Shown here one piece after another: positions 4,360 through 53,366 of a stretch of 64,000 nucleotides of DNA; within the stretch, counting starts at the first letter, position 1, and every line of letters begins with the position of its first letter. The stretch spans positions 64,001-128,000 of IMG/VR virus record IMGVR_UViG_3300034101_006340; one strand, written 5' to 3'. The notes under the pieces are model-generated. The model did not search any database. It was not told where the DNA came from and worked only from the letters and a program-made list of their open reading frames with translations. Both the position numbers and the translations under genes were made by a program. The DNA is from a virus.

Positions 4360-4367
4360 TAATGGTG

Positions 4368-4412: not shown

Positions 4413-4430
4413 TCTAATATAAAGATTATA

Positions 4431-34776: not shown

Positions 34777-37700
34777 TTATTGTTGGCCTTCTTTAGAATC
34801 TTTATTACTATTCTCCCATTGACGTATCGCATCTTGTACAATATTACCTAGCGGACCTTCTATTAATGCTTTGAGAGCATCAGCACCATTAACATTAATA
34901 TCCCAAGGCTTATTTTGTACCAAATTAACATTAACTTCCGGAGGAATATTTAACTGTTGTAGTTGTTGAACAAATGTATCAAATTTTTGAGCAAATGTCG
35001 CCAAACCGGCCAAACCACCCTGAGCACCTCCTGCGCCCTGAGCAGCTTCACCATTACCATTTACACCGCCACCGCCTCCTCCTGCTAATGCTTGATTTAG
35101 CTGTGTGATTGTTGCTCCATATTGTACTAAAACTTGATTAACACCAGTTAATAACGTTCCAAATATAACCATTTGTTTATTAACATCACCATAAGAACTA
35201 GGATCAAAAGCTGCTTGTGACGCTTGGCCAACAGCTTGTTGTACTTGTGGAGAAATTGCTGGCGCTCCACCAGGACCGCCGCCTTGAGCCTGCTGCCCCA
35301 TCATGGCTTGTTCACGAGCATTGGGATTAGCTTGTTGTTGTTCAGCATATGCTTGTTGATATGAAACACCTTTGGTTTTGGAGCTTGAATATGCGTCTCT
35401 TCTGCGTTGCATTTCCGCCTCATAAGAGTCTTTTCTTTCTTTCATCTGGTCCTTATAAGATTGTCTTCTGCTAGCCATTTCGTCTTCATATGCCTGCCCC
35501 CCTTTTTTAAGATATACAGTACCACCACCACTATAACTATTACTGTTAATAGATCTTAATAAACCTAGATTTTTTTGCGTAGCTTTACGATTAACAACAA
35601 ATTCACCGGGAGTCAACATAGCTGGAACAGTATCAGTACCTCGTGGTTGATAGTTAACCAATGTTCCAGTACTAGCATAAATTAATCCGCCAAAAGCTTT
35701 ATTCTGTGCTCGTGCGGCTCTGTCTGCTATTCTTCTCTCAGCGCCTTTCTGAAAAGCCGCTGCTTGTTTGTTTGCTAAGTCTTTTAGAACAGGATCATCA
35801 CCAGCACACTCGGCCCTAATTTGTGCATCTAATTCTCTCTCTTTGGTTTTTTTATCTTCAAATCTTGCAATTTGTTCTTCTTGATCCAGTTTAACAAATT
35901 TAGTTGATCTTTTCTCACGATCCAAATATGTCTGACTAACACCAGCATTGCGATAAAATATATCCATACCGGGGACAGTTACCGCATACATATTCGGTAG
36001 ATTATTTTGTGCGTCTGCACCGCCATTAGTAGCATTTAAAAGAGTTGTAACAGCATTCTTAAAAGCATCAATTAATGGACTATCTGCTTGTATAGTATTT
36101 ATATCTCCTTTTTCTCTACGAAATTCATTTTCTATTTTAAATCTTGGAGATGCTTCTAAAAGCTCTTTACGACCCAAACCGGAAGACTGCATAGCTTCGT
36201 CTTCTCTTGCTAAGGATGTTTTTCTAAAACCGTCCATTATTTCTCGTAATCTACTAGAATAATCCATTCTAATTTGACGAGCATTTTTTGCTCTATCTTC
36301 ATCGTCTGGATTCATCTTAGCTTCTTCTTCTGCTCTAACAGCTGCTCTCTCGCTTTGTGCATCTCTTTCCAGACGAGATTTTTTCTCTGCAACACATTGA
36401 TAAAATCCTTGTCTATTCGATTCTGCATCTGCTCTGGCTCTTGCTGCTCTGTCTCCTTGTTCTTTTAGTTTAGCCAAATCTTCTCCTTGAACAGCTCCTA
36501 TGGCATCAAAAGCCGAAGCCACAGAATCAAGATTTGGAATACCTCCATCTTGCAAATAAACCACTCCGCCTTTACTCATTGCTCTTTGTCCACTATTGAT
36601 AGCTTTGAGCAACGGCAAATGTTTTTGTGTAGCGGCACGATTGACCACAAATTCCCCAGGAGTTAACATCGCTGGTACGGTGTCCGTGCCTCTTGGTTGA
36701 TATGGGATCAACATACCAGTATTTGCATATACAACTCCGCCACTACTAAGCTGTTCGGGATCTACTTGTAATTGACTGGTATTACCTCTACTACTGGTTT
36801 TTATATTATATCCTTGTCTCCATCTGTCTCTAATTTTATCGTTTTTAGTACTATAATATGTAAATTCTCCTAAGCGATTTCTCCACCAACCATAAGAACT
36901 TTTATATTGACTTTGAGGAGACTTACCTCCTGTAATTTTTCTACCACCTCTTTCCGCTTGTGCTCTTATCGCCCAGTTACGATCTCTCATATCTTCTTCT
37001 TTGCCAGATGGTTGTCCGAATTTAGCTACAGGAGTAAAACCCTCTGCTTCTGGTGCTGCTTCTCCGCGCCTTCTGGCTTTTCCAGCTTCTTGTGCAAATC
37101 CTACTGCTTCTTGATCTTCTACATCTCTCATATCCATTGGCGCTCCGCCAGGAGCAAATGCTGCTGTTCTGGTATGCACCTGAGATGCTGCTGTTCGTGT
37201 AGCAGCTTCTCCTTTTGCTTGTCCAAGAGCATTTCCTCTAACTGATTGATCAACCATAGTGCTTCTTTGATCATATGCGGTTGTACGATATGATCCTTGT
37301 TTATCTTTAGAATAAAATGCTGTTGTGGTAAATAAATTTTTATCAGGCGCTGGTGGCATATTACCAGCGACAATCTGCTGACTAGCAAATTCTTTATAGG
37401 TTAATTCATCATAATAGTTTGGTCTTTCTATTGCTTTTTTAGCCTCGGCTTGCACCTTGGCTTCTTCTTTGAAGTCTTCCGGGCGTGGTGCTTCTTGTTC
37501 TGGTTGACCAATATCGGGCCCGCCAGGGGGGACTTTACCTTCTTCCGGGGGTGGTATTGGTTCTCTGGTCATGGGCCTATCCCGCCCAGCATCTTGAATT
37601 TCTTGAGCCTGTTTCATTAACTGCCATACGGCTAATATTCCAGCAAGTATAGTTAATCCCGTACTAAGTCTCGATTTCTTATTTGATCGAAATGCAATAG

Positions 37701-40700
37701 CATTATCTTTAACAAATTGTGGCCAAGATCTTGGCTTAAAGCCAGGAAAATCGGAATCATCAAAACCCTTAACTAAATTATCATAGTCTGCTGATGGTTT
37801 TTTAGCTCCTGCTTTATTAGCCATATCATCCAAAACTCGTTGTCTCATAGCTGCTACTTTGGTATCGTAAAGCTGTTTACCTAAAGAGTCATCCATCATT
37901 ATTTTGGTGGCTTGATCATTAAGCACAAGATTACCACTGCTATCAATATCAAAACCATTATTTTTAATCTTGGTTAATGTGTCCTGAATTGTTGTGTCTG
38001 GAACTTCGCCTAAAGCTTTTTGTATGGCGCTTGTTTCATTAGCACCTTTTCCTATGGCATCTTTAAAAGCTTGGTCAAAAACAGTATTATTCTTTAGATC
38101 TGCTAAGTTTTTAGTAGCGGCATCTTTTAGAGCAGAACCCGATCCGCTCTGGTAAAATAAATCAACCACTTCGTTACCAATCTTTTTTGTAGACGCTTCA
38201 TAAATCTCTCTAGCATTTTTAACTGCTTCAGTAAATTTTTGAGCTCTCCTACCAGCAAACATTCCTTTAGTATAATATGTTTCTGGACCTTTTACTGTTG
38301 TAGCAGTATCGTCTAATGGTTTCACGCCAGCATCGTCTGCGGCTTTAGCAGTAGCATCATCTGCGGTTTTAGCAGCAGCTCGTTCCGCTTTGATTTTATC
38401 AAGCGTATCTTGGGAATTACGTCTTAGTCTATCAGCTGCTTTTTTAGCTTGTGCCGCATCTCCTCTACGAACAAGCTGTTCATCGAGTTCTATTAATCGT
38501 GCTTTAGCTTCTTGTGTATAAGACCCACCACCACCTTTGCCCCCAGACTTTCTTCCTGCAATAATCTCATCAGCCTGGCCTTGTATTCTTTCTATAGAAA
38601 GCCTATTGGGTGGTACACTATTCCATCCTCCACGAGAGATAAAATCTGCTTCAGCGGCAGTTTTTATATCAACATCAGAGATTGTATCTAAAGACCCATC
38701 TTTAATTCTTTGATTCAAAGCTTTTAGTCTTGCGTTCGCATAATCGATAGGAGCAAAATTATTTCCGTTTCCATCGACAGGATAAGTAAAGTCTGGATCG
38801 CTTTCTCTGCGAATAATACTTTCTGATAATGTTTTTCTTTCATCTACAAATGCTTTAATTTTATCGGCAGCCATTTTAGACTGTTGTTGCATAGGGTCCA
38901 CAACCTGTGTTTTGGCCGGAGTGCCTACTTCATCTGCTGCTTTTGCTGTTTGTTCTACTGTCTCTGTAGCACCTTTTCTAGTTAATATTTTGGCCCGACC
39001 ATCTTTTAATAGTTTACCAATTTTGGTTTTACTAATAAGTCTGCCCGCTGGGCCTGCTGCTAATGCTCCTCCTCCGAGCGCAACATCCGCAATATCAAAT
39101 AACATTTCTGCGGTTCCTGCCGAAGACTTATAACCAGCTTGTTTCTCTAATAGTTTTTCTTTTTCTGTTTTAATTAATTCATCAGCAGCAGAAGCAGCCA
39201 TAATTCCACCAACGCTACCAGCAATAGTAATACCAGCAGTTCCTAGAGCAGCAGCAGTCGCTCCAACAGCAGCGGCTGGTAAAGCTATTGGGGCTGCGGC
39301 AGCTACAGCAGCAGTTAATAAAAGATTTCTTAATCCTATTTGCGATCCTTTTCTAAGGCCTTCATCTCTAATATCTTCTGGTAACATACCTAATTGAGAT
39401 AATTCAGATAATTCTTTTGCCGAGGTGGACTGTACGCCAAGATTCATATCTATTAATCCCTCTAAAGCAGCAGTACTTCCACTACCAGCTATATTTCTTA
39501 GAGAGATAAGATCTTCTAACAAAGATTTTCTTTGTTGGTATTCTGGTTGTTTGGCTTTCCATTTCGGTTTGTTATTTATTAGATACGCTATTTCGTCGGT
39601 GATGGGCTTGGTAGTTTTTGCTGGTGTCCAACGAGGAAGGTTTTCATGTTCTTGACGCAAATCTTTTATTCTTTGATCTATGCCTTTTAGATCAGTTCTT
39701 TTAGACAAAATATCGTGCCATATATCCAATTTTGGTCCCAAAGAACGTACTTGATCTGATGCATCGGTTTGAAATTCTTTTCTATCATTTGTGGTACCAG
39801 CCCAACTAAATAATTCTTTAATATTTTCTCCTATCCACCACGAATCATCCAGATAGGGATTGATGATAGATAAGGTTTGCAGGTCTTTAGACAGAATATT
39901 TGTAAGGTCTATAGAATCTATAGGGCTGTCGGCCCCGCCAGCAACATTGAGACCAGCAAGCATAGCATCGGCTCTACCAAACTGTTTTTTTAGGCCGATT
40001 AATGTTTGAATATCTGTAGAAAATTGTTGCACCCTAGGAATTTTATTACTAGACAGCTTACCTCCCGGTAAAAGATCTTTCTGGATTCTTATCCCCTCTT
40101 GAGTCTCCACCTGTGCCATTGACGAAGACCCTGCTTCAGATAAATCCTTCAAAATATCATTAATTAAAGCCTGTTTCAAATTATCTGGTTGCACACCTTC
40201 TGGTTGCGGAGATTCCATAGTAACTTCTATAGCCTTATTGATACTATTTTTTAGGCTGTCTGATGCTGCAACGGGTTGTTTGGAACCCTCTGCAAGATAA
40301 ACAACTCCTCCTTGACTATATTGATTGGGAGTTGATCCGCTATTAATAGATTGTAATAAGGGTAAATGTTTTTGTGTGGCGGATCTATTTACTACAAACT
40401 CTCCCGGAGTTAACATGGCAGGAACAGTATCTGTTCCACGAGGCTGAAAATTAATCAGTTTACCAGTACTAGCATAGACTACTCCACCCGTAGCTAAAGG
40501 TTGTGGTTTTTCCAAACCCATAGCGGCAGCACGAGAAGTAAACCAATTCAAACTTGGTAATGGGCCGAGATTATTAGCTAAACCAAATAATACCTGTGCT
40601 TCTTGGGCTTTTTGATATATATCTTGACCAGCTTTATTATAGCTGTCTATAAATTCTGCCATTCTAGCAGCATTGTCCGGCTGTGCTTTAGTATCAAAGA

Positions 40701-43700
40701 AATAGTCTTGGCCAACCCAATCACCAATTCCACCATACCAATTCATCAATCTTGTTAATCCATCTCCTATCCAACTAAGAGTCATAGGATCAAAATATGG
40801 CATAGTACTATTTTCTGCCCTTAAATTAAACAAGTCATTTCCAAATTTTTGTATTAAATCTTTTCTGGTACTAGTTTGTGGAAATTCATTATACGGGTTA
40901 AAAATCAGTTTAACAAGATCATTAACATTGGCATTTTCTGGTAATGCAACAGATAAGTCACTAGCTGCTAGTTTGCCGTCTCGTCCAACGGTCTGGATCT
41001 TAGTTCCTTGAAGTTGTGTACTTATTAGGTTTTGCCAATCTCCGCTAAGAGCCATCGATCCAACCTTGCCGAATCTAGCTGAAGTACCATAGCTTCTGAA
41101 TACATCAGCTATATTTGCTTTCTGATCATAAAATTGTTTTAATAAAGACGTATTGCCTTGAGCTATATCAGCAAAAGCACCAGCTGCTCCACCTATCATT
41201 AGGTATGCATTATTTAACATATTAGCAGCTTGTGGACTATTAGCTTTTGGCATTAGTGCTTGGCTAATATAGCCACCAGCTTGATTAAATAATCCGCTCA
41301 TATAAGATGATGCATCTTTATAATTTCCAAGAGCAGCTACTCTCATGGCTTGAGTACCACCGTAATTAGCAACCCATCCTGTTGGCAACCCGCCTAAATT
41401 ATTAAATAACTGCATTGCTCCACGAATCATAAGTAAAGTTGCTTGTGTATTTTCTTTATCAGAAAAAACCTTGCCTTTAGTTATTGCGGAATTGTCTACT
41501 TTGGCTGCGGCCCCTGCCATCATAGTTTGTAGGCTCTGTAGTTTATCTACAAAAAAGTCCCCTATGGGAACACTGATAGCATTATCACTAAAACCAGCAA
41601 AAATATCTCTGCCTGCTGTACCAGCCCCACCCGGCACATCTAGGGCTTTTAACAAACCTACTGGACCACCTTTAAAACTTAATCTAACTAAATCCTTTAC
41701 CGCTTGTTGTTTAGCGGCATAATCTGGATCTTTATTTAGTTGCGCTTTTAATAAATCTGCAATTGCAGTACCCACATTTGGATCAGCTAAATTAGAATTA
41801 GCTAAAATATCTGCTCCTGTATATTTTTTATTTGTAAATAATCTAGATCTCTCTGTATCCAGTTGTTGGAACAGTGTTTTATCAATCTTATCAGGTAATA
41901 AATATGTAAAGGGTGCTCCAACAAATTCTTTTTTGGCACCATCAAATAATTTACCAGTATACTGAGTATATTGTACGGGTATGTCGATTCCTTGACCCAT
42001 ACCTACAGGTAAAACATCTCGAATATTGGCAGGTAAATCTAATTTAATTGGATCTGTTATAGTACTAGTTTTTATTCCGCTCTTATTTATAAGATCATCT
42101 AATGTTTGTTTAGAAGCCCTTTCTGCAAATCCTTTGCCTAAATATGTATCTATGGCGCCATTTACCATAAAAGGTAGTTCCGTTTCTCCTCCGTTAATAG
42201 TATCTGTAATCTTAAAACCTTCAGCTAATGTAAACTCATCCAATGGTCCTGCTAAACCAGGAATACCGAATTTAACTTTCTCCTTTGAAGCTTTAGCCTT
42301 ATTACTTCTTGCTAATTCAAGTCCTTTAATAAAGTCTGCTTCCATGCTTTTTTGTGCAACAGTAATAGCGCTGACATTTTGTAGTCCGTCGAATATAGAT
42401 AAATTTGTACCAATACTATCATTTGTAAGAGTTGCGCTTGGAATTGTATTACTAAATAATCCAAATAATATCTCTTGTAGTTTACTGCCCTCTTCTGTAT
42501 AATTAAGATTTCCTTTTAAGAATTCTCTAGTATTAATTAGTAATTCATTAAGCTTTGCATTTTCCACATTAGTTTCTGCTATTTTATCAGCTAAAATTAA
42601 ATCTAAACCTTGTCCTGTTGCTAATTCTGGATATTTAAGAACATTTGTTCCCACAATATTCCAGTCTCCAGAATAGTCTTTACCAAAATATGGACTTTCA
42701 GGTAAAAATTGAAGATTAGTTTTTGCTTTTGTGGCCGATGCCACAGCATGTGGTTTACCAGCACCCAGATACATGGCATATGTATCCTGTGTATAAACCC
42801 CAAGAGCGGGTCTACCAGAAAGCTCTTGACTATCAATAGGTACTTCTCCGGCCATAACTGGAGAACGACCTGTTTTATAGAATACTCCAGCAGATTTACC
42901 TTGTTTACTTGTTGTAATTTTATTAGTTGTTTGACTAAAAACATCTCCTTCTTTCAAAGGATCTCCAAAATTAGATGCATCTATCGTAGCAATAGGTAGA
43001 GTAACTGTTTCGATTCCAGCAAATTTTGTTTTGATACTTTCGGCTTTTTTTTCTGCGTCGTTTTTAGAAAGCTTATCAATTGTTTCTAAAGCAGGATCTT
43101 GGAAATATAACCTGTCGTCTGGTTTTGCTGGGCTCAGAGCACTAGCTCTATTCATTAAAGCATTATTGTGTTTGTAACTATATTCATAATCATTTCTTAC
43201 AATATCTGGAGTATATCCTGGAACTGGTGGACCAGGAATAATATTTGGAGAATCTAACCCATACCCCTCTTTTCCAGGAATTGCTGAGGCCATCATTTTA
43301 TAGGTAGATGTATAAACATCGGGCAGTGCAAATAATGGAGATGTGGCAATATCCCATGCTATTTTATTAGAATCTACGTCTTTAAGAATTGGTTTTTCTA
43401 AAGTCTGACCGGCTCCTAGTGTTTTATCACGATCTCCATAATTTGTAATGAAGCCTCCGGCAGCATAATAAGAGACTTTGCCTCCGTTGGCATAACCATT
43501 ATTAATGGATTGTAGTAATGGTAAATTAGCTTGGGTAGCTTTGCGATTAACAACAAATTCTCCAGGCGTCAGCATTGCTGGTACAGTATCCGTACCTCTT
43601 GGCTGGAAATTAACCATTTGTCCAGCAGATGCATATATCAATCCGCCTGTAGCAATTCCGGGTGCTGCTGGAGCTGCGCCGGGTGCTGGGGGCGGAGCTT

Positions 43701-46700
43701 TCATTATTGATACAATACTATTGACATTAGTAGCAATATCTCTAAGTTCTGCATTTTGAAAAGTTAAAACTGCTTGTTGTAATCCTTCAACTATAAGCTT
43801 GGCATTACTTTGAGCAATTCTATCTGCTAGCGTAGCATCAAGTTGTCCTAACAATCTAGTAGCTTGAGATTGTTCCACAATGGCCTGATTATAGTATTGA
43901 ATTGCTGCTGCTGTTGCTGGATCTTGTTCTGGATTACGTAGACTATTGAGCACTTGTTGCATTAGTGGGGATACTCCCATCCCAGCTTCTTGAAGCATCG
44001 TTTCTAAAACATTGGCTCTGACTTGATTACCTTGTTGGCTGTCTCCTAAAAATGGTAAAATATCCTGTAGTGCTCCGAGGGTTTCTTTTCTTTCATTGGC
44101 GAAAGCTGCTTGAGCTTCTCTCATAGCTTCTGTAGCGCTTGCTCCACTTTCCAATGCTTGTATATAAGCTCTTTGTGCTCCAATACTATTTTGTATAGTA
44201 TTTTGTTGTCCATTTATATTTCGCTGTAGTCTGATTAAGGCGTTGTTTGTTGATTCTAATTCATCTGGTGTAGCAGTAACTATTTTCTCTAAAAAGCTAA
44301 CTCTTCCAGCGGCTTTTTGTTGGGCTTGTTGAATAGCGTCCAAAGCAGCACTGGCTTTTTCAGTGTTATTGGCCATATCTTCTAGCGCGGCTCTGTTTTC
44401 TCTGAGTGCTATATTAGTATTTTTTAGTTCATTATTGAACTTAACAAAATCGGCTGCGCCAGCTAGCCCTTGCTCGGCACTCTGTCGTACACTAGATTGT
44501 TGCATTTGTCTAGTGGTATCCAAAGCCAAAAATTGATTAAAAATATCTGTTGGATCTGTTAATCCACCGGTCTGTCCAGCAACCTCCGCATCTCGTTTGG
44601 CAAAAGCGTCCGCAACCTTTATAGTTTTACCAAGAGCTTTAGCTAAATTTAAACTAGCGTCTGTAACAAGTTGTATAGATTTTCTAGACCGGTCTCTGGC
44701 GCTGACTTCTAGTTCTATAATACGATTAAGATTATTAGTATATTGATTTAAAACACTTTGATAATGTTCTAATGCTTTTATAACGCTTTGTTGTGCATTT
44801 TTGGCTACTTCTGTGACGCTTCCTAGTCCAGCAATTTTTTCAGATAGTTTTGCATAATCAACACTATCTTCGCCTTCCTTGCGTATATCAGTAATACTAT
44901 CTCCAACTTCTTTGGCTAGTTTATCAGCTAATTCTGGTGGCAAACCTAGATCTTTTAATGTTGTTTTTAAGTTTCTGTCAATAATTCTAGTTAATGCTTC
45001 ATTAGTAACATTTCCTCCTTGATCTCTAAGAGTATTATTTATAGTAGACATTACCGATGAAGTAATAGTCTCACCAAAAGTTGCTAACTGCGTCATCTCC
45101 GCTGATCTATTACCATATAAAGCTCCTCCAACAGAAGCAGCTCTTTGTACTTCGGGAGCGCTGTATGCTGTAGGATTTTGAATAATATTTTTTGCACCTA
45201 AATTAATATCCCCGGCCTGTGCTTGACCTTGAAATGCGGAAGTTGATAATTCAACGCTATTTTTCATCTTTTCTAAAGAAAATACCGTTGCATTAATGGC
45301 TTGATCCATATTATTGAACATACGTTGTAATGAACGAGTGTAAACACCAACAAGATTTCCAAAATTTTTCTGCGTTTTTTCTCTTAAGGCGGTTTCACTT
45401 CGTTCTCTTAACATAGCTGTTCCGGTTATAGAAATAAGATCCTTAATTCGAGCTTGTCTAGCTTCTTCCGTTAAAGATGTATCTAGTTCAATAGATCTTA
45501 TATGAGTAGCTAGTGAAGCATCTGCCATAACTAAACTTCTCTTAAAATCTTCTGCTTCTGGTCCACCTAAAATATCTTCTACAGATTCTCCTGCTTTGAT
45601 TCTAGAAACAATAACTTGATTAATATTTTCAGCAACAGGCTTAAAGATTGCTGCTGATTCACGACCACTGACTGCTGATGTTCTACCACGAATATTTTCT
45701 AGACCTTGTTGTCCAGCAAATAAGGTTTTCAAATATGGAATAATACCTTCTGTTTCTAAAATTTGTCCTCGTGCTGATGCTTGTCTAGAAGCAGTAATAT
45801 CACCAGAAAAGAAACTTTGTAGATTGGCTGATAGAACATCCAGGCCATTCACCAAACCAGCGGAAGCACTGTCTTGACTCATTTGCCGTTGTCTTTCAGC
45901 TGCTTGAGCTGCTGTAATAACTTTGCTCTGAAGTTCATTTCTTAAATCTATTTGATTAACATCTTTGTTAAGTTTTTCAAATCCTTCAGCCAATCCTTCT
46001 ATTGCTGTTTCGACTCTTTTTTTCTCTAATTCTATTGCAAAATTACGTACAGCATTGTATGCTTGTCGTGCTGCTTCCGCAACCACGGCCAATACTTGTA
46101 ATCTACCAGCTACTCTCCCTATAGTCCCTGCAAAGTTAGCCATCCTAGGATTAGTTGCACGAAGACTATCTGCCATATTAGTAGCTTCTTGTATCAATTG
46201 TTGGGTTGCTCCATAAGTTTGAGAAGCACCAGCTATTGCTCCACCAACACCCGCTTCTGTTGCGCTAGATTTTGTATTTAAAACATCTGCAACTAGAGTT
46301 CCAACGGTCATAATAGCCATATTACGCATTGTTCTGGCTTGATATTCTGCTCCTTGTACTGCTCCTGGAGAAGTCGCCCCTTCTGCTGCGGCAGTACCTT
46401 CTACCGCTCGTCTTCTAGCACTAATTTCTTCGTCTAATGCCGCTCGTCTTGCTCTTGCAGTATCCTCATCAATAGCACCAGAGGCCAAATCAGCTTCTAT
46501 TCGTTGTCTAGTGGTTTGAGTTAATCTTTGGTTCATTTGATCCAAAGTTCTGCTATCTCTAGCCAAGATCTGAAATACTCTAGCTAAATCATCTCCATCC
46601 GCTCCTAAAGCATCTAAGTCTATTGATGTTCCAGTAACACCGCCACCGAATGCTACAGTTTCATATGCTTGTCTTCTTCTATCGTTTTCTCCTGCTCTAA

Positions 46701-49700
46701 GTTCAGCTTGAACTTCTTCTTCGGTTCTAGCAACTCCGGTTGTTGCCGATGGGGTGGTTCTAAGAGTAGCTTCAGCAGCCGCTCTTGCTCTATCAACCTG
46801 CTGTTGTACAAGACCCAGAGCATCTTGTATAGCGGCGCCTGAAATATCTCCTAATTGTTGTCTTATAGCAATTTCATTTTGCGTTGCTGTTGTTGCTTGT
46901 TGCACAGCTGTTTCTAAATCGAATATAACATCCGCAGCAGCACCAGCTGCTCTTGCAGCGGCTAAATCTGCCTGAGCCGCTCTTTCTGCTTCTGCCGCCG
47001 TGGCTTGATAGCTCCTATTCAATAAAGCAGCAGATCTTGATCCATTAACTCCTAATGCTTGTAATGTTTCTGCTAATTGCGTTAATGCTGTGGTAGCTTG
47101 TGTACTAGCACCTATAGTTTCAGCGGAAACTGTGTCTGGTCGTGCGGCCGGGGCTCGTCGGCCTCGTCCTCCAAAAAAGAATTTCTGGATTCGTCCACCG
47201 TTATTAAATCCTAATGCTTCGGTAGCTTTCTTGCGAATAACAAAACTACCAACCTCAAGAGGTACTGGACCAAATGTGTCAGTATTACCAGAGCCAGGAA
47301 CGATACCAACTCCTCCACCACTAGCATATCTATCAGCATAATTCATTTTATTAAGTTTAGCATATCCTATGCTTTTAGCTAGTTTCGGCCCTATTACAGC
47401 TTCGCCGGGTGTTAATAATGCTGGAACATAACCCCCGTCTGCAAATCTGCTTAATGGTCCACCAATATTTTTCTTACTTAATTTCATTCCCATAGAACGA
47501 ATAATATTATCTACTTCCGCATCAGATACTTCGCTACCATAGCTATCTAATAAAGCATATAGAGTTTCTGATAATCCTGTTATACGTCCTTGATTTGGAA
47601 CAGCAGCTCCTTTTAATAATGCCTGATAGTCTGGCAAGGCTTTTTGTGCTTTAGATAATTTGCGTTGTATCGAAGCTTTTTCATCGGGATCAGTTTCTGA
47701 TGCCAGATCGTTTTGCAATTGGGATATGTATCCTGGGAAAGATTTTTGAATATGACTATCTATAGCTTGATCAAAAGATAATTGACCCGTCTTTTTAAAT
47801 GATCCTATGGCTTCTTCTGCTTGAGTATAAACTAAATTGCCTGCTTCGGCAGCGAGTGCGGCATTAGCCCGTGCTTCCCTAGCACTAGCCGCAGGTGTTT
47901 TAGTTGCTGTTGCTCGACCAAACGGCAGAATTTCTTCTATCTCAGAATACCATCCATCATATTGTTTTATTAAATCTGGTTTCAGTGCTTCAAAAGCATC
48001 TGGTTCAATATTATCAGGTATTTTTACTAATTTTTTACCCAAAGACATTCCTGCTCCACCAGATTCAAACACCCATTGCTGAATTTTTTGTGCATACTCT
48101 GCTAATGGTTTTGGTAATGGTACACCAAGATGATTTCCCCATCCAGGACCACCATATTCTCCGGCTTGGGCATATGCTTGCTCTGCAAATAATTCGTATT
48201 GTTTTGGTTCAAGAGGCACAAAACCTTTTGGTCCACGAGATCCTCGTCTAATATTTTTGGTAGATCTATCTTTAACACCTCCGGGAGAACCGTCTTCAAA
48301 GCCCTGTACTAATCCACCCAAATTAAATCTATCAGGATTTTCTGTAAAATATCTTTCAAACTCGCTTCTTGCTTTATCAAAAGCGCTGCCGTTTAATGTT
48401 CTCTTAACTTCTGTTTCTATATTAGATGGTAAATTAAATAAAGAGGCCGCATTACCAAGACCAGCGGGAAAATCTATGGCCCTAGTAGCTTCTAGAGCAT
48501 CTACGTTGATTTGATAGCCTAATTTTTGAGCTAACGCCTGTTCTAATAACGATCCCTCGATATTACCTTCACCAGTTTTGGTATACATTTTTTGATCATC
48601 AAAAGATTCTGGTTCTTGGTATCGATATGACTGAACTCCTTTTTTCTCTGCTGCTTTAATATTTTCTTCATTATCATCAATAAATTTTTCAATAGCTGCT
48701 AAATTAGCAGCTTTTCCTGCGGCAATATTTGTTCCAAGCCCTTTGCTTACGCCGGTAATATCGGTAGCTTGATATGGCAACCCGAATCTATTTAATGTGG
48801 CGGCAACTAAATCGGCTGTGGTTTGTGGTCTTGCTGTTAAAACCCTAGTAAGTCTTCTAACTATGCCTGGATTTTTTTGTTCAACCTCGGACAATCTTTG
48901 TGCAAGTCTTGAGGGCCTAGCTTTTGCTAAACTTGCTTCTACTTTATCTCTTAAAGAATAACTAGCAATATCTTCTTTACCGCTCTCATCGACCATTTTT
49001 GTTCCAAAAGCTAATGTTTCATCAAAATCTATAGCTAGTGGTCTAATTGGTCCAACAATTGGTGCTTCTGTTTGACTTAATGGTCCTAGTGCTTCTGTTG
49101 CTGTTGTATCTTTAGCAAAATCTAGACTGGCTTGTCTTTGTCTTTCTCTTAATTTTTTAACATCTCCTAGATACTGTTTACTAAATCCTCTAATCATTGC
49201 AGTATATTTTTGACCGTTCAATGGATTGTCTGGACCAAGATCTAGCGTCCATTCTTTATCACTGCTATAATCTATTGGTTGCAACCCTGCTATGGCTACT
49301 TTTCTTAATCCTCTTTTACGAGTTTTTTCGTCTGTATCAACTTGTTTAGCTTTATTCAAAATACCAGCGACAACCAAAGGATCAAGTCTGCCGGTAAGAA
49401 TACCGTCTTTTCTAAGTTTTCTTTGTAAATTAGAGGGAATAGCAACTCCACGATCCCGTATTCCTGCTTCATTACCAAGATCTGCTAATGTTTTTACTAA
49501 AGTGTCTGTTATAGCCTGTTGAATAGACTGATCTTGTTTTTTATTTTTGATAGCAATCTGACCAATTTCACCATATTGTTCTACTATTACAGGGTCTATC
49601 TCTTCTGTTTCTCCGCCAACAGCAAATTTTTGAATTAGTCCACCAAAAAATTTTTTCTTTTTGCCAGAATTCGCCTTGAACGATCCTCCTGCGCCTGTGA

Positions 49701-52002
49701 TTTTAGTAGCATCAGTAAATAGTCTCACGTTCCCTAATGGTATTGTGTTTATATTACTGTCTAATTGTGTATTTGCTAATTGTGATGCTAGTGGAGCTGC
49801 CGCCGGAGAATCTTGACTTCCTAATATAGATGATGCTATAATTTTTTTTCCTATTTCTTTTTCGGAAACTGATTCTTTATAGCTTTTAATTTCAACTGGT
49901 GCCCCAGATGTATCGATTCCGTCTAGTCTAGCATACCGATTAGATGATAAAGCAACCCCTTCAACATCTCTTACAACATTTTGAAAAGCGTCCCCTCTTT
50001 TTGTAGGGGAGCGGGTTTGCATATATGTTGTTATCGAAGGAAGTTCTTTGTATCTTTGATCATTCTGAAGCTCAGACACATCGATACTTTGTGGAACAAT
50101 ATTAAAATTAAACTTATCTTTTGGATTAAATCTATTGGGCTTAGATCCTCCAGCATTAAATGGTTTACCTGATTCTTTGTCTAATTGTGATCTATCTAAT
50201 TGCACTTGATTTAATAGTTGGCTATTGCCCGCATATTTTTGAATAGGCCCCCCATAAGCATATCTACGACTTCTAGACGAGTATAATTTACCGCCAGAAT
50301 TGAAGCCCTCAAGATTTTTTCTTCCTGCTCTAGCTACCCCTGCTTTACTCATCACAAATTCACCAGGAGTCAACATTGCCGGAACACTATCTCTATTTCC
50401 AACTCCAGGAACACTACCGCCCTTGGCAAACCCAATAATTCCACCCATATTTGCTCGTCGCCCACCAGTTCCCCTAAAACCTCCGCCAAAACCTCCGGCA
50501 AATTGAGTAATAGCGCTTACGCCTCTAAATGCTGCCATCACACCTATAAGTGGTAATAATCCTTTAGTGGCATCTGCGACTTTGATCAATGCACTAGCTA
50601 AATTTAATCCTATCTTTACCAAAGCTTGAAAAGATTGGCTCTCTCCAAAGGATCTCATTAAGGCAGAAAATTCTTCTCGTACTTTTTGGAATTGTACAGC
50701 AAGTGCTAGTTGTCCTTTTGCTGCTTCTGCCGCCAATGACCCCTGACCAGCTTGTGCAATTTTTAATGCTTCTTGCGCCGTTGCAAATTGTTGAATAAGT
50801 GGAAGCACTTTACCGATTTGTCGGAAACCACCAAGTTCTTCTACAATTTCACTAAATTTTAAGTCTCGTGGATCTAACCTTCCTAATCCATCTGCTAATC
50901 TTCTAACCGCTTCGTATGGACCAACGAATTTGCCTTCTAGATCTGTTAATGTGACTCCATATTCTTTAAGAGCTTCAATAGTGTCTGCTCTTTGAATACG
51001 AGTAAAAATAGTTCTTAAACCAGTAGCGATAGTTTCTGCGCTTTCACGAGTTGTGGCACGAACACTTGTGAAAACAGCAATAAATTCATTTAATGCATCT
51101 GTGCCTTGACTAACGCCATTACTAGCAGCAGCAAACACACCACCAGTACGCTGAATAGCGGTAATAAGATCACTAGCTTCAACAGCAAACGCAGCAGCAA
51201 CAGCATTGATAGATCCTAATGCTCCTTCTAATTGACCGGCGCTAATTCCGAACTGTCTCATTAAAGCAATACTACCTTCAACAGTTTCATTTAAACTATC
51301 AAACGATGGAGCTAATGCGCTTTTTGCTAAGGCTTCTAATGCTTTTCTGGTATCATTAGCGTTTAAACCAGCTTGAGCTAGTGTAACAGCAACATTTGCA
51401 ATATCTGATGATGCAACACCGAACCCTGTGGATAATCTTGTTATTTCACCAACTAGAGAGCCTAATCCTGCTTTGGTTTCATTGGTAACTTGTGTTAATC
51501 TTACTATTTGCCTATCAAATTCAATATATTGTTTAATGCCAGCAGACAAAGCATTGGTAAAACCATATATAACTGATGTAACGCTACTAAAAGCAGCAAA
51601 ACGTCTAACTGCTAATCCAGCTTGTCTACCGAAATCTTCAAATTCAGTACGGGTTTGTGCGACAGCTCTTGCAGCATTTGTTGCTGCGTTTGCTGTAACA
51701 TTAATTTGAGCTGGTATATTATTAGGCAATCTAATATTGCCAACGCTAGCCATTGCAGCCGCTAGATTATTGAATGCTGTTGTAGCATTAGTAGCGGATG
51801 CTGCCGTTTGGTTAAGAGTAGCACTTAATGCATTAAGTCTTGTGTTTAAATTACCAACATTTCTACTTACTCTTGGATCTATATTAACATTAACATTAGC
51901 ATTAATAGTACCTAGTTGTCTGCGAATATTAGAAACTACTTGTCTAATATTAGCTGGACCCCTAAGATTAATTTCAGCAGTAAGATTAAATCCTCTAGCC
52001 AT
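34777..52002 (-). CDS. Giant tail tape measure protein (5741 aa) with embedded enzyme-like domains
   Basis: N-terminal TP901-type TMP core (ASDLITAIQRTGG...ESAETIATGLRTIFTRI), Ala/Gln-rich helical tracts, repeated DTVPAMLTPGEFVV modules; lies after the tube and chaperone genes. Confidence 0.92.
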   Translation of the reverse strand: MARGFNLTAEINLRGPANIRQVVSNIRRQLGTINANVNVNIDPRVSRNVGNLNTRLNALSATLNQTAASATNATTAFNNLAAAMASVGNIRLPNNIPAQINVTANAATNAARAVAQTRTEFEDFGRQAGLAVRRFAAFSSVTSVIYGFTNALSAGIKQYIEFDRQIVRLTQVTNETKAGLGSLVGEITRLSTGFGVASSDIANVAVTLAQAGLNANDTRKALEALAKSALAPSFDSLNETVEGSIALMRQFGISAGQLEGALGSINAVAAAFAVEASDLITAIQRTGGVFAAASNGVSQGTDALNEFIAVFTSVRATTRESAETIATGLRTIFTRIQRADTIEALKEYGVTLTDLEGKFVGPYEAVRRLADGLGRLDPRDLKFSEIVEELGGFRQIGKVLPLIQQFATAQEALKIAQAGQGSLAAEAAKGQLALAVQFQKVREEFSALMRSFGESQSFQALVKIGLNLASALIKVADATKGLLPLIGVMAAFRGVSAITQFAGGFGGGFRGTGGRRANMGGIIGFAKGGSVPGVGNRDSVPAMLTPGEFVMSKAGVARAGRKNLEGFNSGGKLYSSRSRRYAYGGPIQKYAGNSQLLNQVQLDRSQLDKESGKPFNAGGSKPNRFNPKDKFNFNIVPQSIDVSELQNDQRYKELPSITTYMQTRSPTKRGDAFQNVVRDVEGVALSSNRYARLDGIDTSGAPVEIKSYKESVSEKEIGKKIIASSILGSQDSPAAAPLASQLANTQLDSNINTIPLGNVRLFTDATKITGAGGSFKANSGKKKKFFGGLIQKFAVGGETEEIDPVIVEQYGEIGQIAIKNKKQDQSIQQAITDTLVKTLADLGNEAGIRDRGVAIPSNLQRKLRKDGILTGRLDPLVVAGILNKAKQVDTDEKTRKRGLRKVAIAGLQPIDYSSDKEWTLDLGPDNPLNGQKYTAMIRGFSKQYLGDVKKLRERQRQASLDFAKDTTATEALGPLSQTEAPIVGPIRPLAIDFDETLAFGTKMVDESGKEDIASYSLRDKVEASLAKARPSRLAQRLSEVEQKNPGIVRRLTRVLTARPQTTADLVAATLNRFGLPYQATDITGVSKGLGTNIAAGKAANLAAIEKFIDDNEENIKAAEKKGVQSYRYQEPESFDDQKMYTKTGEGNIEGSLLEQALAQKLGYQINVDALEATRAIDFPAGLGNAASLFNLPSNIETEVKRTLNGSAFDKARSEFERYFTENPDRFNLGGLVQGFEDGSPGGVKDRSTKNIRRGSRGPKGFVPLEPKQYELFAEQAYAQAGEYGGPGWGNHLGVPLPKPLAEYAQKIQQWVFESGGAGMSLGKKLVKIPDNIEPDAFEALKPDLIKQYDGWYSEIEEILPFGRATATKTPAASAREARANAALAAEAGNLVYTQAEEAIGSFKKTGQLSFDQAIDSHIQKSFPGYISQLQNDLASETDPDEKASIQRKLSKAQKALPDYQALLKGAAVPNQGRITGLSETLYALLDSYGSEVSDAEVDNIIRSMGMKLSKKNIGGPLSRFADGGYVPALLTPGEAVIGPKLAKSIGYAKLNKMNYADRYASGGGVGIVPGSGNTDTFGPVPLEVGSFVIRKKATEALGFNNGGRIQKFFFGGRGRRAPAARPDTVSAETIGASTQATTALTQLAETLQALGVNGSRSAALLNRSYQATAAEAERAAQADLAAARAAGAAADVIFDLETAVQQATTATQNEIAIRQQLGDISGAAIQDALGLVQQQVDRARAAAEATLRTTPSATTGVARTEEEVQAELRAGENDRRRQAYETVAFGGGVTGTSIDLDALGADGDDLARVFQILARDSRTLDQMNQRLTQTTRQRIEADLASGAIDEDTARARRAALDEEISARRRAVEGTAAAEGATSPGAVQGAEYQARTMRNMAIMTVGTLVADVLNTKSSATEAGVGGAIAGASQTYGATQQLIQEATNMADSLRATNPRMANFAGTIGRVAGRLQVLAVVAEAARQAYNAVRNFAIELEKKRVETAIEGLAEGFEKLNKDVNQIDLRNELQSKVITAAQAAERQRQMSQDSASAGLVNGLDVLSANLQSFFSGDITASRQASARGQILETEGIIPYLKTLFAGQQGLENIRGRTSAVSGRESAAIFKPVAENINQVIVSRIKAGESVEDILGGPEAEDFKRSLVMADASLATHIRSIELDTSLTEEARQARIKDLISITGTAMLRERSETALREKTQKNFGNLVGVYTRSLQRMFNNMDQAINATVFSLEKMKNSVELSTSAFQGQAQAGDINLGAKNIIQNPTAYSAPEVQRAASVGGALYGNRSAEMTQLATFGETITSSVMSTINNTLRDQGGNVTNEALTRIIDRNLKTTLKDLGLPPELADKLAKEVGDSITDIRKEGEDSVDYAKLSEKIAGLGSVTEVAKNAQQSVIKALEHYQSVLNQYTNNLNRIIELEVSARDRSRKSIQLVTDASLNLAKALGKTIKVADAFAKRDAEVAGQTGGLTDPTDIFNQFLALDTTRQMQQSSVRQSAEQGLAGAADFVKFNNELKNTNIALRENRAALEDMANNTEKASAALDAIQQAQQKAAGRVSFLEKIVTATPDELESTNNALIRLQRNINGQQNTIQNSIGAQRAYIQALESGASATEAMREAQAAFANERKETLGALQDILPFLGDSQQGNQVRANVLETMLQEAGMGVSPLMQQVLNSLRNPEQDPATAAAIQYYNQAIVEQSQATRLLGQLDATLADRIAQSNAKLIVEGLQQAVLTFQNAELRDIATNVNSIVSIMKAPPPAPGAAPAAPGIATGGLIYASAGQMVNFQPRGTDTVPAMLTPGEFVVNRKATQANLPLLQSINNGYANGGKVSYYAAGGFITNYGDRDKTLGAGQTLEKPILKDVDSNKIAWDIATSPLFALPDVYTSTYKMMASAIPGKEGYGLDSPNIIPGPPVPGYTPDIVRNDYEYSYKHNNALMNRASALSPAKPDDRLYFQDPALETIDKLSKNDAEKKAESIKTKFAGIETVTLPIATIDASNFGDPLKEGDVFSQTTNKITTSKQGKSAGVFYKTGRSPVMAGEVPIDSQELSGRPALGVYTQDTYAMYLGAGKPHAVASATKAKTNLQFLPESPYFGKDYSGDWNIVGTNVLKYPELATGQGLDLILADKIAETNVENAKLNELLINTREFLKGNLNYTEEGSKLQEILFGLFSNTIPSATLTNDSIGTNLSIFDGLQNVSAITVAQKSMEADFIKGLELARSNKAKASKEKVKFGIPGLAGPLDEFTLAEGFKITDTINGGETELPFMVNGAIDTYLGKGFAERASKQTLDDLINKSGIKTSTITDPIKLDLPANIRDVLPVGMGQGIDIPVQYTQYTGKLFDGAKKEFVGAPFTYLLPDKIDKTLFQQLDTERSRLFTNKKYTGADILANSNLADPNVGTAIADLLKAQLNKDPDYAAKQQAVKDLVRLSFKGGPVGLLKALDVPGGAGTAGRDIFAGFSDNAISVPIGDFFVDKLQSLQTMMAGAAAKVDNSAITKGKVFSDKENTQATLLMIRGAMQLFNNLGGLPTGWVANYGGTQAMRVAALGNYKDASSYMSGLFNQAGGYISQALMPKANSPQAANMLNNAYLMIGGAAGAFADIAQGNTSLLKQFYDQKANIADVFRSYGTSARFGKVGSMALSGDWQNLISTQLQGTKIQTVGRDGKLAASDLSVALPENANVNDLVKLIFNPYNEFPQTSTRKDLIQKFGNDLFNLRAENSTMPYFDPMTLSWIGDGLTRLMNWYGGIGDWVGQDYFFDTKAQPDNAARMAEFIDSYNKAGQDIYQKAQEAQVLFGLANNLGPLPSLNWFTSRAAAMGLEKPQPLATGGVVYASTGKLINFQPRGTDTVPAMLTPGEFVVNRSATQKHLPLLQSINSGSTPNQYSQGGVVYLAEGSKQPVAASDSLKNSINKAIEVTMESPQPEGVQPDNLKQALINDILKDLSEAGSSSMAQVETQEGIRIQKDLLPGGKLSSNKIPRVQQFSTDIQTLIGLKKQFGRADAMLAGLNVAGGADSPIDSIDLTNILSKDLQTLSIINPYLDDSWWIGENIKELFSWAGTTNDRKEFQTDASDQVRSLGPKLDIWHDILSKRTDLKGIDQRIKDLRQEHENLPRWTPAKTTKPITDEIAYLINNKPKWKAKQPEYQQRKSLLEDLISLRNIAGSGSTAALEGLIDMNLGVQSTSAKELSELSQLGMLPEDIRDEGLRKGSQIGLRNLLLTAAVAAAAPIALPAAAVGATAAALGTAGITIAGSVGGIMAASAADELIKTEKEKLLEKQAGYKSSAGTAEMLFDIADVALGGGALAAGPAGRLISKTKIGKLLKDGRAKILTRKGATETVEQTAKAADEVGTPAKTQVVDPMQQQSKMAADKIKAFVDERKTLSESIIRRESDPDFTYPVDGNGNNFAPIDYANARLKALNQRIKDGSLDTISDVDIKTAAEADFISRGGWNSVPPNRLSIERIQGQADEIIAGRKSGGKGGGGSYTQEAKARLIELDEQLVRRGDAAQAKKAADRLRRNSQDTLDKIKAERAAAKTADDATAKAADDAGVKPLDDTATTVKGPETYYTKGMFAGRRAQKFTEAVKNAREIYEASTKKIGNEVVDLFYQSGSGSALKDAATKNLADLKNNTVFDQAFKDAIGKGANETSAIQKALGEVPDTTIQDTLTKIKNNGFDIDSSGNLVLNDQATKIMMDDSLGKQLYDTKVAAMRQRVLDDMANKAGAKKPSADYDNLVKGFDDSDFPGFKPRSWPQFVKDNAIAFRSNKKSRLSTGLTILAGILAVWQLMKQAQEIQDAGRDRPMTREPIPPPEEGKVPPGGPDIGQPEQEAPRPEDFKEEAKVQAEAKKAIERPNYYDELTYKEFASQQIVAGNMPPAPDKNLFTTTAFYSKDKQGSYRTTAYDQRSTMVDQSVRGNALGQAKGEAATRTAASQVHTRTAAFAPGGAPMDMRDVEDQEAVGFAQEAGKARRRGEAAPEAEGFTPVAKFGQPSGKEEDMRDRNWAIRAQAERGGRKITGGKSPQSQYKSSYGWWRNRLGEFTYYSTKNDKIRDRWRQGYNIKTSSRGNTSQLQVDPEQLSSGGVVYANTGMLIPYQPRGTDTVPAMLTPGEFVVNRAATQKHLPLLKAINSGQRAMSKGGVVYLQDGGIPNLDSVASAFDAIGAVQGEDLAKLKEQGDRAARARADAESNRQGFYQCVAEKKSRLERDAQSERAAVRAEEEAKMNPDDEDRAKNARQIRMDYSSRLREIMDGFRKTSLAREDEAMQSSGLGRKELLEASPRFKIENEFRREKGDINTIQADSPLIDAFKNAVTTLLNATNGGADAQNNLPNMYAVTVPGMDIFYRNAGVSQTYLDREKRSTKFVKLDQEEQIARFEDKKTKERELDAQIRAECAGDDPVLKDLANKQAAAFQKGAERRIADRAARAQNKAFGGLIYASTGTLVNYQPRGTDTVPAMLTPGEFVVNRKATQKNLGLLRSINSNSYSGGGTVYLKKGGQAYEDEMASRRQSYKDQMKERKDSYEAEMQRRRDAYSSSKTKGVSYQQAYAEQQQANPNAREQAMMGQQAQGGGPGGAPAISPQVQQAVGQASQAAFDPSSYGDVNKQMVIFGTLLTGVNQVLVQYGATITQLNQALAGGGGGGVNGNGEAAQGAGGAQGGLAGLATFAQKFDTFVQQLQQLNIPPEVNVNLVQNKPWDINVNGADALKALIEGPLGNIVQDAIRQWENSNKDSKEGQQ
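35540..35697 (-). repeat. TMP internal module copy (GGLIYAS..QPRGTDTVPAMLTPGEFVVNRKATQKNLGLLRSIN)
   Basis: Protein-level repeat read from the translation. Confidence 0.9.
36595..36747 (-). repeat. TMP internal module copy (GGVVYAN..QPRGTDTVPAMLTPGEFVVNRAATQKHLPLLKAIN)
   Basis: Protein-level repeat. Confidence 0.9.
40340..40494 (-). repeat. TMP internal module copy (GGVVYAS..QPRGTDTVPAMLTPGEFVVNRSATQKHLPLLQSIN)
   Basis: Protein-level repeat. Confidence 0.9.
43500..43653 (-). repeat. TMP internal module copy (GGLIYAS..QPRGTDTVPAMLTPGEFVVNRKATQANLPLLQSIN)
   Basis: Protein-level repeat. Confidence 0.9.
47221..47450 (-). repeat. Two divergent TMP module copies (FADGGYVPALLTPGEAVI; GSGNTDTFGPVPLEVGSFVIRKKAT)
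   Basis: Degenerate versions of the same module. Confidence 0.7.
50345..50450 (-). repeat. First TMP module copy (FAKGGSVPGVGNRDSVPAMLTPGEFVMSK)
   Basis: Marks the end of the canonical TMP core. Confidence 0.85.
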
Positions 52003-52092: not shown

Positions 52093-53004
52093 CTACGCAC
52101 TAGTAGCGCTAACCGGCTCGGAAACTGGAGTTGGCTCAGTGCTAGGCGTTTCATTTGTAGCAACTTTTTCTTCCTTATTAGAAATTACAGGTTGTGGGAC
52201 TGTTTCCTCTTCAAAAACAACTGGATTGCCATTATCGTCTAAAAATGGTTGAGCATCAACAACATATTCACCAGCCTCATCAACTTGATTACCGTCTCTA
52301 TCTACAAACTCACCAGCCTCATTAATATATCGACCTTGTTCGTCTATTAGTCTACCTTCGCCGTCAACGGTACGACCCTTTTTATCAATAAATCGTAAAT
52401 CATCATTTACAAACTTGTATTTCTTTAAGAATTTATTTTCTGGTAAATTCTTTTCAAAGTTATTATCTAATCCATAAATCATATTAGCCAATTTTTGAGC
52501 ACCCGAAAGAGCCACAGGATCATCTATGCGACTCATATAGTCTTCAAGGCTTTCAAAATACTTTTTATCACTATCTTTATACACCACACAAGCACTAACT
52601 AAATAATTAAATCTAGCATTATCAGCTTGACCTTCGGCGCTATGGTTGTCTAAACTAGTACGAACGCTAATAAGTTCTCGGATCTTATTTCTTACTTCTC
52701 TCATTCGAATAGCTAGCTTCTTAGCTTCACTAAGTGAAAAACCACCTTTAGCCAGTTTTCGCTCTCCGTCTAATAGTTCTTTCTGAAGACTAGTATATTC
52801 TTGCTGCTTTTCAGTATTCCATAAACCCTGATCTTGCAGTAAGTCGTCCATCTTTGCCCTTACAACGCTTTTGCTCTTAATAGCGTCTGTAAAAGCTTGA
52901 TTATATACTTTTTGTCCTTCTCTTTGATCTACTAATGATGGAGATCTAACTGTGAAAGTCTTTTCTTCACCATTAACTACTACTTTGAAATCCTCGGTCT
53001 TCAT
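52093..53004 (-). CDS. Putative tail assembly chaperone with C-terminal heptad beta repeats
   Basis: Immediately upstream of the TMP; RBS AGGAG; charged helical protein; [IV][DN]xxGxx repeats. Confidence 0.55.
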   Translation of the reverse strand: MKTEDFKVVVNGEEKTFTVRSPSLVDQREGQKVYNQAFTDAIKSKSVVRAKMDDLLQDQGLWNTEKQQEYTSLQKELLDGERKLAKGGFSLSEAKKLAIRMREVRNKIRELISVRTSLDNHSAEGQADNARFNYLVSACVVYKDSDKKYFESLEDYMSRIDDPVALSGAQKLANMIYGLDNNFEKNLPENKFLKKYKFVNDDLRFIDKKGRTVDGEGRLIDEQGRYINEAGEFVDRDGNQVDEAGEYVVDAQPFLDDNGNPVVFEEETVPQPVISNKEEKVATNETPSTEPTPVSEPVSATSA

Positions 53005-53015
53005 AAAGGTCTCCT

Positions 53016-53366
53016 TTAGTTTTTCTTAGAATTATTACATTGACAGTTTCGTGAACATGATTTAGAATCTTCTGGTGCAACGGGGAACTTGTATGAGTAT
53101 CTTTGTTTGATACTTCCTTCTCCCCACTTATCAAAATCTTCTTTTGCATTTCTTATTTGAGAATTACCCTGATTTAATATTTGGTTGCGTGTTCTTTCCC
53201 AATCATCAGCAAAAGCTAATTGTTCTGCCGTAAGAGGTTCTTCTTCATCTAAAAAATGACCCCATAAATGTCCAAAGTTTTCTTCAAATCTACTAAGGGC
53301 TCCAATCATAATAGTTTGCATTCTTTTTTCAACATAGTATCGAAGTCTATCAGATTCCATTGACAT
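53016..53366 (-). CDS. Hypothetical protein (116 aa)
   Basis: ORF with AGGA RBS between the chaperone-like genes. Confidence 0.7.
   Translation of the reverse strand: MSMESDRLRYYVEKRMQTIMIGALSRFEENFGHLWGHFLDEEEPLTAEQLAFADDWERTRNQILNQGNSQIRNAKEDFDKWGEGSIKQRYSYKFPVAPEDSKSCSRNCQCNNSKKN

Follow-up and report, generated by a model that had tools for sequence, protein, structure and literature searches.

A giant phage tape measure protein with seven lambda gpH-type modules as candidate processing joints

The tape measure gene and its seven modules

In the current study, we describe an exceptionally large tail gene in a 64,000-nucleotide stretch of viral DNA (positions 64,001 to 128,000 of IMG/VR record IMGVR_UViG_3300034101_006340), referred to here as the window. 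A single unbroken open reading frame (ORF) on the minus strand (34777..52002) encodes a tape measure protein (TMP) of 5,741 residues, a member of a class that is usually treated as passive rulers, sometimes with one cell-wall enzyme. Its canonical core (residues 145–482; 50557..51570, on the minus strand like all features of the gene given below) is matched by the NCBIfam model TIGR01760 (tape_meas_TP901; E 3e-30) and, over residues 187–379, by the Pfam model PF10145 (E 2.6e-24), and residues 45–520 are covered by five TMP families of PHROGs. Judged by these family matches, the product is a genuine TP901-type TMP. The core has its own hydrophobic stretch at residues 481–500, and the first ~575 residues amount to a complete ordinary TMP, consisting of a TP901-type core, a hydrophobic and glycine-rich stretch, and then a module of the type found in the phage lambda protein gpH. 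The phage itself, uncultured and aquatic, would be long-tailed and probably non-contractile.

This module, of ~55–75 residues, occurs seven times in the protein, with the copies located both by regular expression and by hidden Markov model (HMM). A first-pass annotation, made from the DNA letters alone, had listed four near-identical and three divergent copies, and its approximate positions fit those reported here. Module 1 (type B; residues 513–575, 50278..50466) directly follows the hydrophobic and glycine-rich stretch mentioned above. Modules 2 (type C, divergent; residues 1502–1561, 47320..47499) and 3 (the most divergent; residues 1557–1607, 47182..47334) are arranged in tandem. Four type A copies complete the series, namely module 4 (residues 2783–2841, 43480..43656), module 5 (residues 3836–3894, 40321..40497), module 6 (residues 5085–5143, 36574..36750), and module 7 (residues 5435–5492, 35527..35700), the last in a position like that of the lambda fragment gpHC. 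Only copy 7 lies near the C terminus (249 residues from the end), the other six being internal. The A-type copies share pairwise identities of 67–83% (BLASTP E 1e-27 to 1e-32), and the three N-terminal copies are divergent (31–46%).

The codons of the A-type copies are saturated with synonymous differences (proportion of differing synonymous sites, pS, 0.58–0.80), with a corresponding nonsynonymous proportion (pN) of 0.13–0.22 and, where computable, a dN/dS ratio of 0.10–0.16. Saturated pS combined with dN/dS of at most 0.16 implies selection on the peptide, as the first-pass annotation had suspected from third codon positions; the A-type copies are old paralogues kept by that selection, not recent duplications or assembly artefacts.

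Each A-type copy opens with a characteristic glycine box: IATGGLIY at residue 2783 in module 4, LATGGVVY at 3836 in module 5, LSSGGVVY at 5085 in module 6 (which has a second box, MSKGGVVY, at 5142), and KAFGGLIY at 5435 in module 7. Related [F/Y]AxGG boxes are found before modules 1–3, after A-type modules, and at the end of a region with a predicted HAD fold that is described below. As a joint, the module has glycine boxes at its flanks, with the pattern [K/R/L/F]-[A/S]-x-G-G-hydrophobic-hydrophobic-Y, and a profile built from 101 copies contains ~16 invariant or near-invariant positions over ~50 residues. Neither Pfam nor NCBIfam holds a model for it; the PHROGs families matched by the module are phrog_35029 (function unknown) and phrog_25241 (a TMP family).

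A first profile, built from seven module sequences, gave no match in the PDB. The 101-copy profile (A3), searched against all PDB sequences, matched residues 733–786 of the 853-residue lambda gpH (8iyk_H; E 3.5e-4) in an alignment that takes in FATGG, PAG, GEFVF, the following helix, and the trailing GYATGGYVG; the lambda segment reads FATGG...PAGIVHRGEFVF...GYATGGYVG. The same search matched gp16 of mycobacteriophage Douge (1,699 residues) twice, at 962–1029 and 1412–1460 (E 8.5e-7). By profile comparison, then, the module is homologous to lambda gpH 733–786. The resemblance extends to context, with the lambda module also following a hydrophobic, glycine-rich stretch, as module 1 of the window TMP does, and lying 67 residues from the C terminus, compared with a median of 144 for the last module of the giant proteins described next. 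Lambda gpH differs in having one copy of the module rather than seven, and no enzyme. The available structures show only residues 818–849 of lambda gpH (PMC10721106) and residues 1658–1699 of Douge gp16 (PMC13033339), and the modules are not resolved in either.

Relatives of the window TMP are numerous. A scan of viral contigs with its N-terminal 560 residues as the query returned 80 loci, mostly on contigs of 20–240 kb and at 50–78% identity, with TMP frames of 2,000 to >4,000 residues. A common plan recurs among them, comprising a module directly after the core (at about residues 520–650), often a tandem divergent pair later, and well-conserved copies ~1,000 residues apart in the distal part; three module subtypes (A, B, and C) can be distinguished. 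When profile A3 was searched against 1.84 billion cluster representatives, 28,057 were matched at E ≤ 1e-3, 8,549 at E ≤ 1e-10, and 1,529 at E ≤ 1e-30, making the module a widespread building block that is modelled by neither Pfam nor NCBIfam. The top matched proteins reach 7,872 residues and up to 11 matched stretches. For the comparisons that follow, the best 150 A3-matched proteins and the window TMP were combined into a set of 151 giants, in which the first module starts at a median of residue 516, the last ends a median of 144 residues before the C terminus, and the gaps between modules peak at 800–1,200 residues. A word-indexed search for the same N-terminal core returned 659 proteins of at least 3,157 residues, all of them metagenomic, and where source names are given most are labelled as TP901-family tape measure proteins.

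Single copies are also widespread. One module lies near the C terminus in the TMPs of Shewanella phage S0112, Brevundimonas phage Bambus, and Gordonia phage Herod, as it does in lambda, in agreement with the first-pass remark that a lone copy of such a motif is common at that end of TMPs; in T4-like cyanophages, the module stands mid-protein in the proteins at the gp29 position. Searching the literature on the module motif and on tape measure polyproteins, we found no published description of a giant TMP architecture with repeated modules.

Backbone, variable segments, and enzyme-like domains

The stretches between modules had been described as mutually unrelated. Comparison of the whole protein with itself by BLAST gave the identity match only, and the segments were instead compared with one another; none matches another at E < 0.01, which upholds that description. 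When the 151 giants were cut at their modules, 899 segments resulted; by similarity these fall into 281 clusters, with 213 singletons and four recurrent families: the N-terminal core (134 of 151 giants), a helix-prone family resembling segment S2 of the window TMP (107 of 151), the C-terminal tail (76 of 151), and a family resembling segment S1 (59 of 151). Segment S2 itself (residues ~1608–2782; 43657..47181), of helix-prone composition and conserved in those 107 giants, is part of the ruler backbone. The C-terminal tail (residues 5493–5741; 34780..35526) belongs to the tail family and, by analogy with lambda gpH 818–849 (PMC10721106), would dock in the tail tip.

The distal segments of the window TMP are rare among the giants. 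A homologue of S3 (residues ~2842–3835; 40498..43479), which contains more Pro, Gly, and aromatic residues and looks globular in composition, is present in 26 of 151; the variable S4 (residues ~3895–5084; 36751..40320) has counterparts in ~10 of 150, and S5 in 4. Within S4, an Ala/Gly-rich hydrophobic stretch (residues 4222–4262; 39217–39339, minus strand) resembles a membrane span and is long enough for one or two of them; it lies far from the core's hydrophobic stretch.

Homology between giants tends to end at the modules. When blocks of homology of at least 200 residues were delimited, 49% of their ends fell inside a module or within 20 residues of one, compared with 15% for random positions. 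In three pairs of close relatives, identity is 95% up to the end of module 1, after which homology is either lost at once or falls to 51–68% identity, with breakpoints at residue 596 (L010/L016), residue 593 (L014/L034), and residue 643 (L062/L065). Taken together, the recurrent backbone families, the rarity of the distal segments, and the breaks at modules indicate that, as far as sequence comparison can tell, the TMP is a conserved backbone with variable, module-bounded bays and not a string of seven independent cargos. The idea that the segments are polymorphic cassettes thus fits the distal ones, which vary and whose homology breaks at modules, but not S0 and S2, which form a conserved, ruler-like backbone. 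Seen across the family, this is a large, purely metagenomic clade whose rulers of 2,000 to 7,900 residues are put together from a fixed backbone and exchangeable segments.

One region of the window TMP is enzyme-like. Residues ~989–1129, in segment S1 (48616..49038), carry the HAD catalytic motifs DFDxTL, TAR(P), K, and DD, all invariant in 27 homologues. AlphaFold2 modelled the region with a predicted local distance difference test score (pLDDT) of 82–96 over model residues 30–170, and the listed Foldseek matches are either members of the HAD superfamily or proteins with a HAD-like domain (best E 4e-5), including the class B acid phosphatase AphA, phosphoserine phosphatase, the phosphatase of T4 Pnkp, and the HAD domain of Legionella Lem4. 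Searches by sequence only were weak, with no Pfam match and PDB profile matches at E 0.7–2. On the strength of the motifs and the structural model, the region is a predicted phosphatase of the HAD fold. Motifs I and II are separated by a small helical insert, and the structures closest to the region are those of periplasmic AphA-type acid phosphatases; after the region comes a second conserved block, without a known fold (IDFPxGLG ... NIPTEVKRTL). The HAD domain is present in 70 of the 151 giants, nearly always in the first bay.

Other activities appear in the bays of relatives. In one of them (P0159; 3,965 residues, core 77% identical), an ADP-ribosyltransferase exoenzyme domain (PF03496) was matched at residues 1538–1653 with 31.6 bits, above the Pfam threshold and with visible STS and ExE-like motifs; it sits in a first bay enlarged to ~2,600 residues. 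Pairs of calcium-binding EF-hands occur in variable bays of six further relatives (P0014, P0156, P0160, P0009, P0002, and P0170). Pfam searches of five other giants returned the TMP core only, plus an EF-hand pair in one. In the window TMP, searching each inter-module segment against Pfam at E ≤ 1 gave nothing meaningful, NCBIfam returned the TMP core only, and segments S3–S6 had no family match in either collection; S3 also lacked a usable match in the ESM Atlas. Of the enzyme-like domains that the first-pass annotation had proposed for the segments, one has emerged, in the form of the HAD fold, and the other segments have no Pfam match at that threshold.

Polymorphic toxins offer a parallel. 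In these proteins, a short conserved boundary motif (VENN in CdiA, PxxxxDPxGL in Rhs) also marks processing. The likeness is one of analogy only, and consists of a conserved delivery part, variable payloads, and a motif at each boundary; there is no sequence relationship and, unlike in the toxins, the variable parts of the window TMP lie inside a virion protein, several in a row.

Proposed cleavage at the joints and its alternatives

Two cultured phages connect the module or its opening box with proteolysis. Lambda gpH is matured by cleavage to gpH* and gpHC, of which gpH* forms a channel across the periplasm and gpHC stays with the tip plug protein gpI (PMC12617516). The 14-kDa lambda fragment would begin at about residues 710–720, 10–25 residues before the module, placing the module in the N-terminal part of gpHC and the cut in the glycine-rich region next to it. 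A hypothetical cut at F733|A734 gives products of 79.6 and ~12.6 kDa, within gel error of the published sizes, and we predict that gpH, whose box is FATGG at 733, is cleaved at about this bond. The box rule thereby provides a testable prediction for the roughly fifty-year-old question of where and how lambda gpH is cleaved.

In phage T5, cleavage after R1127 divides pb2 into pb2* and pb2C (PMC10038345). The context of the cut is R1127|AEGGMMYPG, and RAEGGMMY is the sole match in pb2 to the pattern [KR][AS].GG[LIVM][LIVM][YF]; the mapped site thus fits the [K/R][A/S]xGG-hydrophobic-hydrophobic-Y box that opens A-type modules. Among 308 A-type modules from the 151 giants, half (50%) have K or R at position −3 of the box and another 32% have L or F there; A or S takes up position −2 in 70%, and A or P position −6 in 71%. 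By the preferences at −3 and −2, the T5 scissile bond lies between these two positions, the most conserved of those that precede the GG. As another point of similarity, the T5 cut parts an enzyme-bearing piece from the ruler; the differences are that pb2 has one site and that the box only, not the whole module, is held in common. A 1973 paper on T5, cited in PMC10038345, reportedly concerned, to go by its title, the host's part in cleaving a tail protein, and a host protease is a possible cleaving enzyme.

The element at every junction of the giant TMPs is, accordingly to these comparisons, the one that stands beside the lambda gpH cut, with an opening box that fits the T5 pb2 cut. Based on where the module lies in lambda, on the match between its box and the T5 site, and on the cassette boundaries, maturation cleavage at some or all of the boxes appears the most likely mechanism, to which we would give nearly, though not quite, an even chance. 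The lineage would have extended an ordinary TMP ancestor with further units, each made of a segment plus a module, and cleavage at the glycine boxes would take place after tail assembly. The tube would then hold a train of pieces (the backbone, the HAD phosphatase, and several that are lineage-specific), which, at infection, would exit the tail before the DNA and act in the host envelope or cytoplasm. We infer the cutting at the boxes, this site of action, and a target for the phosphatase. If the joints are cut, the tail lumen would be a magazine from which a changeable series of proteins is delivered, and a new layer of phage–host conflict. A more far-reaching proposal holds that the boxes are true maturation sites, and that the window TMP and hundreds of related rulers are virion-borne polyproteins, from which four to twelve pieces, cut after tail assembly and stacked in the tube, are injected in order before the DNA, the distal ones being fast-evolving, exchangeable host-directed effectors (phosphatase, ADP-ribosyltransferase, calcium-binding, and unknown); this we consider rather unlikely as a whole.

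Several observations weigh against cleavage. Scans of the TMP and of 21 neighbouring proteins revealed no peptidase family, and no autoproteolytic fold was found; AlphaFold2, run on a single module with 101 sequences, gave a pLDDT of 59 and one short helix only. A protease site needs far fewer residues than the 55–75 of the module, and this implies a further or different role for it. A tblastn search with the TMP as query, run on all 80 related loci, gave nothing outside the TMP frames, and no gene split at a module. S0 and S2 look like ruler rather than cargo, and most of the supposed cargo segments have no recognisable fold. With regard to the two precedents, the lambda site has been located only to within ~20 residues, and T5 pb2 scores ~0 with the module profile and is not detected, so that the T5 link consists of an 8-residue box noticed after the fact. 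Lastly, Thermus phage P23-45, whose gp96 is the only studied giant TMP with an enzyme, carries that enzyme without cutting: gp96 is a 5,002-residue TMP fused to an active virion RNA polymerase and is found at full size in virions (PMC10770324). The first-pass proposal that the module is a processing signal that releases cargo is therefore only partly sustained, with the TMP identity, the homology beside the gpH cut, the T5 box fit, the cassette-like swaps, and one enzyme fold on its side, and the missing protease, the over-long module, the backbone segments, and the foldless ones on the other.

The comparison with gp96 needs some care. Like the window TMP, it is a giant TMP that carries a working enzyme into the host, in its case with an extremely long tail (PMC10770324). 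Unlike the window TMP, it contains no copy of the module when tested with the profile, its enzyme is N-terminal, and it represents a different route to a giant TMP; what they have in common is no more than the principle of building an enzyme into a giant TMP. Lacking the module, gp96 neither supports nor refutes cutting in the window TMP.

The strongest alternative, which we regard as a serious contender although one with clearly less than an even chance, is that the joints stay uncut and the module serves as a structural part of an intact ruler, the whole 5,741-residue chain being expelled as one, enzymes included. The module might register three or six TMP chains, dock on the tube wall or on hub rings, or bind a chaperone at intervals. 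Its ~16 near-invariant positions over ~50 residues resemble a binding surface and not a cleavage site, and the lack of a confident fold for the module alone is as would be seen for a segment ordered only in a complex. The full size of gp96 in virions, despite its enzyme, points the same way (PMC10770324). So do the occurrence of the module in the gp29-position proteins of T4-like cyanophages, which would mean a role common to contractile and non-contractile tails, and the association of giant TMPs with very long tails, as in a Nodularia phage with a TMP of 3,404 residues and a tail of 795 nm. An uncut joint would, however, leave unexplained both the match between the residues before the GG and the T5 scissile bond and the position of the module just after the lambda cleavage region. 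The lumen of the tail tube is ~4 nm wide, and the folded HAD domains of three or more chains would be hard to fit into it unless they were unfolded or staggered. A structure prediction of three module copies as a complex scored 0.01, which gives no verdict and is counted for neither side.

It is improbable, in our estimation, that the module acts after ejection by binding the envelope (peptidoglycan or membrane) and anchoring the expelled TMP across the periplasm. Lambda gpH* does form a periplasm-crossing channel (PMC12617516), and the spacing of the type C module, G-x16-L-x3-N-x10-GG, resembles that of LysM, with a weak PDB match to a LysM receptor kinase (E 1.1). The lambda module, however, lies in gpHC, which stays with gpI, and not in gpH*. 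A LysM-like identity for the module was rejected, as none of 101 modules has a Pfam LysM match even at E ≤ 10 and an hhalign comparison of the module profile with eight E. coli LysM domains gave a probability of 0.3%. Very improbable, finally, is the idea that the modules are mainly recombination landmarks, that is, linkers kept for segment exchange and with no biochemical role of their own: homology breakpoints are indeed concentrated at modules, but such a role needs DNA identity, whereas the copies within this one gene keep the peptide but have saturated synonymous sites, and single-copy TMPs such as that of lambda, which have nothing to exchange, conserve that peptide too, so that selection must act on the protein.

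Neighbouring genes and cultured relatives

Directly upstream of the TMP gene, two ORFs occupy the position of the tail assembly chaperones G and GT (52093..53366, minus strand), one of 116 residues (53016..53366) and one of 303 residues (52093..53004). The shorter ends in ...AAG AAA AAC TAA, and a −1 slip at G AAA AAC (53025–53019) would fuse the two in frame, the sequence continuing as CTA AAG GAG ACC TTT ATG and stop-free into the longer ORF, which also has its own AAGGAG ribosome-binding site. Such a −1 slip layout is usual for G and GT. Neither ORF has a family match, and the two are candidate G and GT proteins by position and reading frame only. Downstream of the TMP gene lie very large proteins with no family match, and in family scans of the neighbours no protein matched a named tail family. 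A 792-residue protein (57829–60207, minus strand) combines a fibronectin type III domain, an Mtd-type N-terminal domain, and a YHYH domain, and matches cyanophage PHROGs annotated as 'virion structural' and 'baseplate wedge'; from this domain content, it is probably a fibre or receptor-binding protein.

No close cultured relative of the phage was found, a megablast search with 25 kb of the window giving no match, and the nearest cultured counterparts of the TMP N-terminal core are SPbeta-type TMPs only, at ~25% identity. Two cultured phages, Douge and the Nodularia phage vB_NpeS-2AV2, carry two modules per TMP rather than four to eleven; neither has an N-terminal core related to that of the window TMP. 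In the Nodularia protein (locus L087, 9379–19593), the modules are in tandem at residues 1006–1040 and 1078–1114. Set against the reported tail length, this TMP spans 0.23 nm per residue, well above the 0.15 nm expected for an alpha-helical ruler; inside the tube, giant TMPs may adopt a partly extended form.

Two further observations touch on TMP segments and on the DNA of module 1. According to the literature, Avs18 senses a TMP segment, which is a different, helical one. Within module 1 (window 50340–50426, minus strand), 82 nucleotides are 85% identical to a gene of the T4-like Synechococcus phage S-SM2, and genes of S-SCSM1 and P-TIM68 are also similar, the rest of the window having no cultured-phage match; this cyanophage-like stretch hints at either exchange with cyanophages or very strong constraint.

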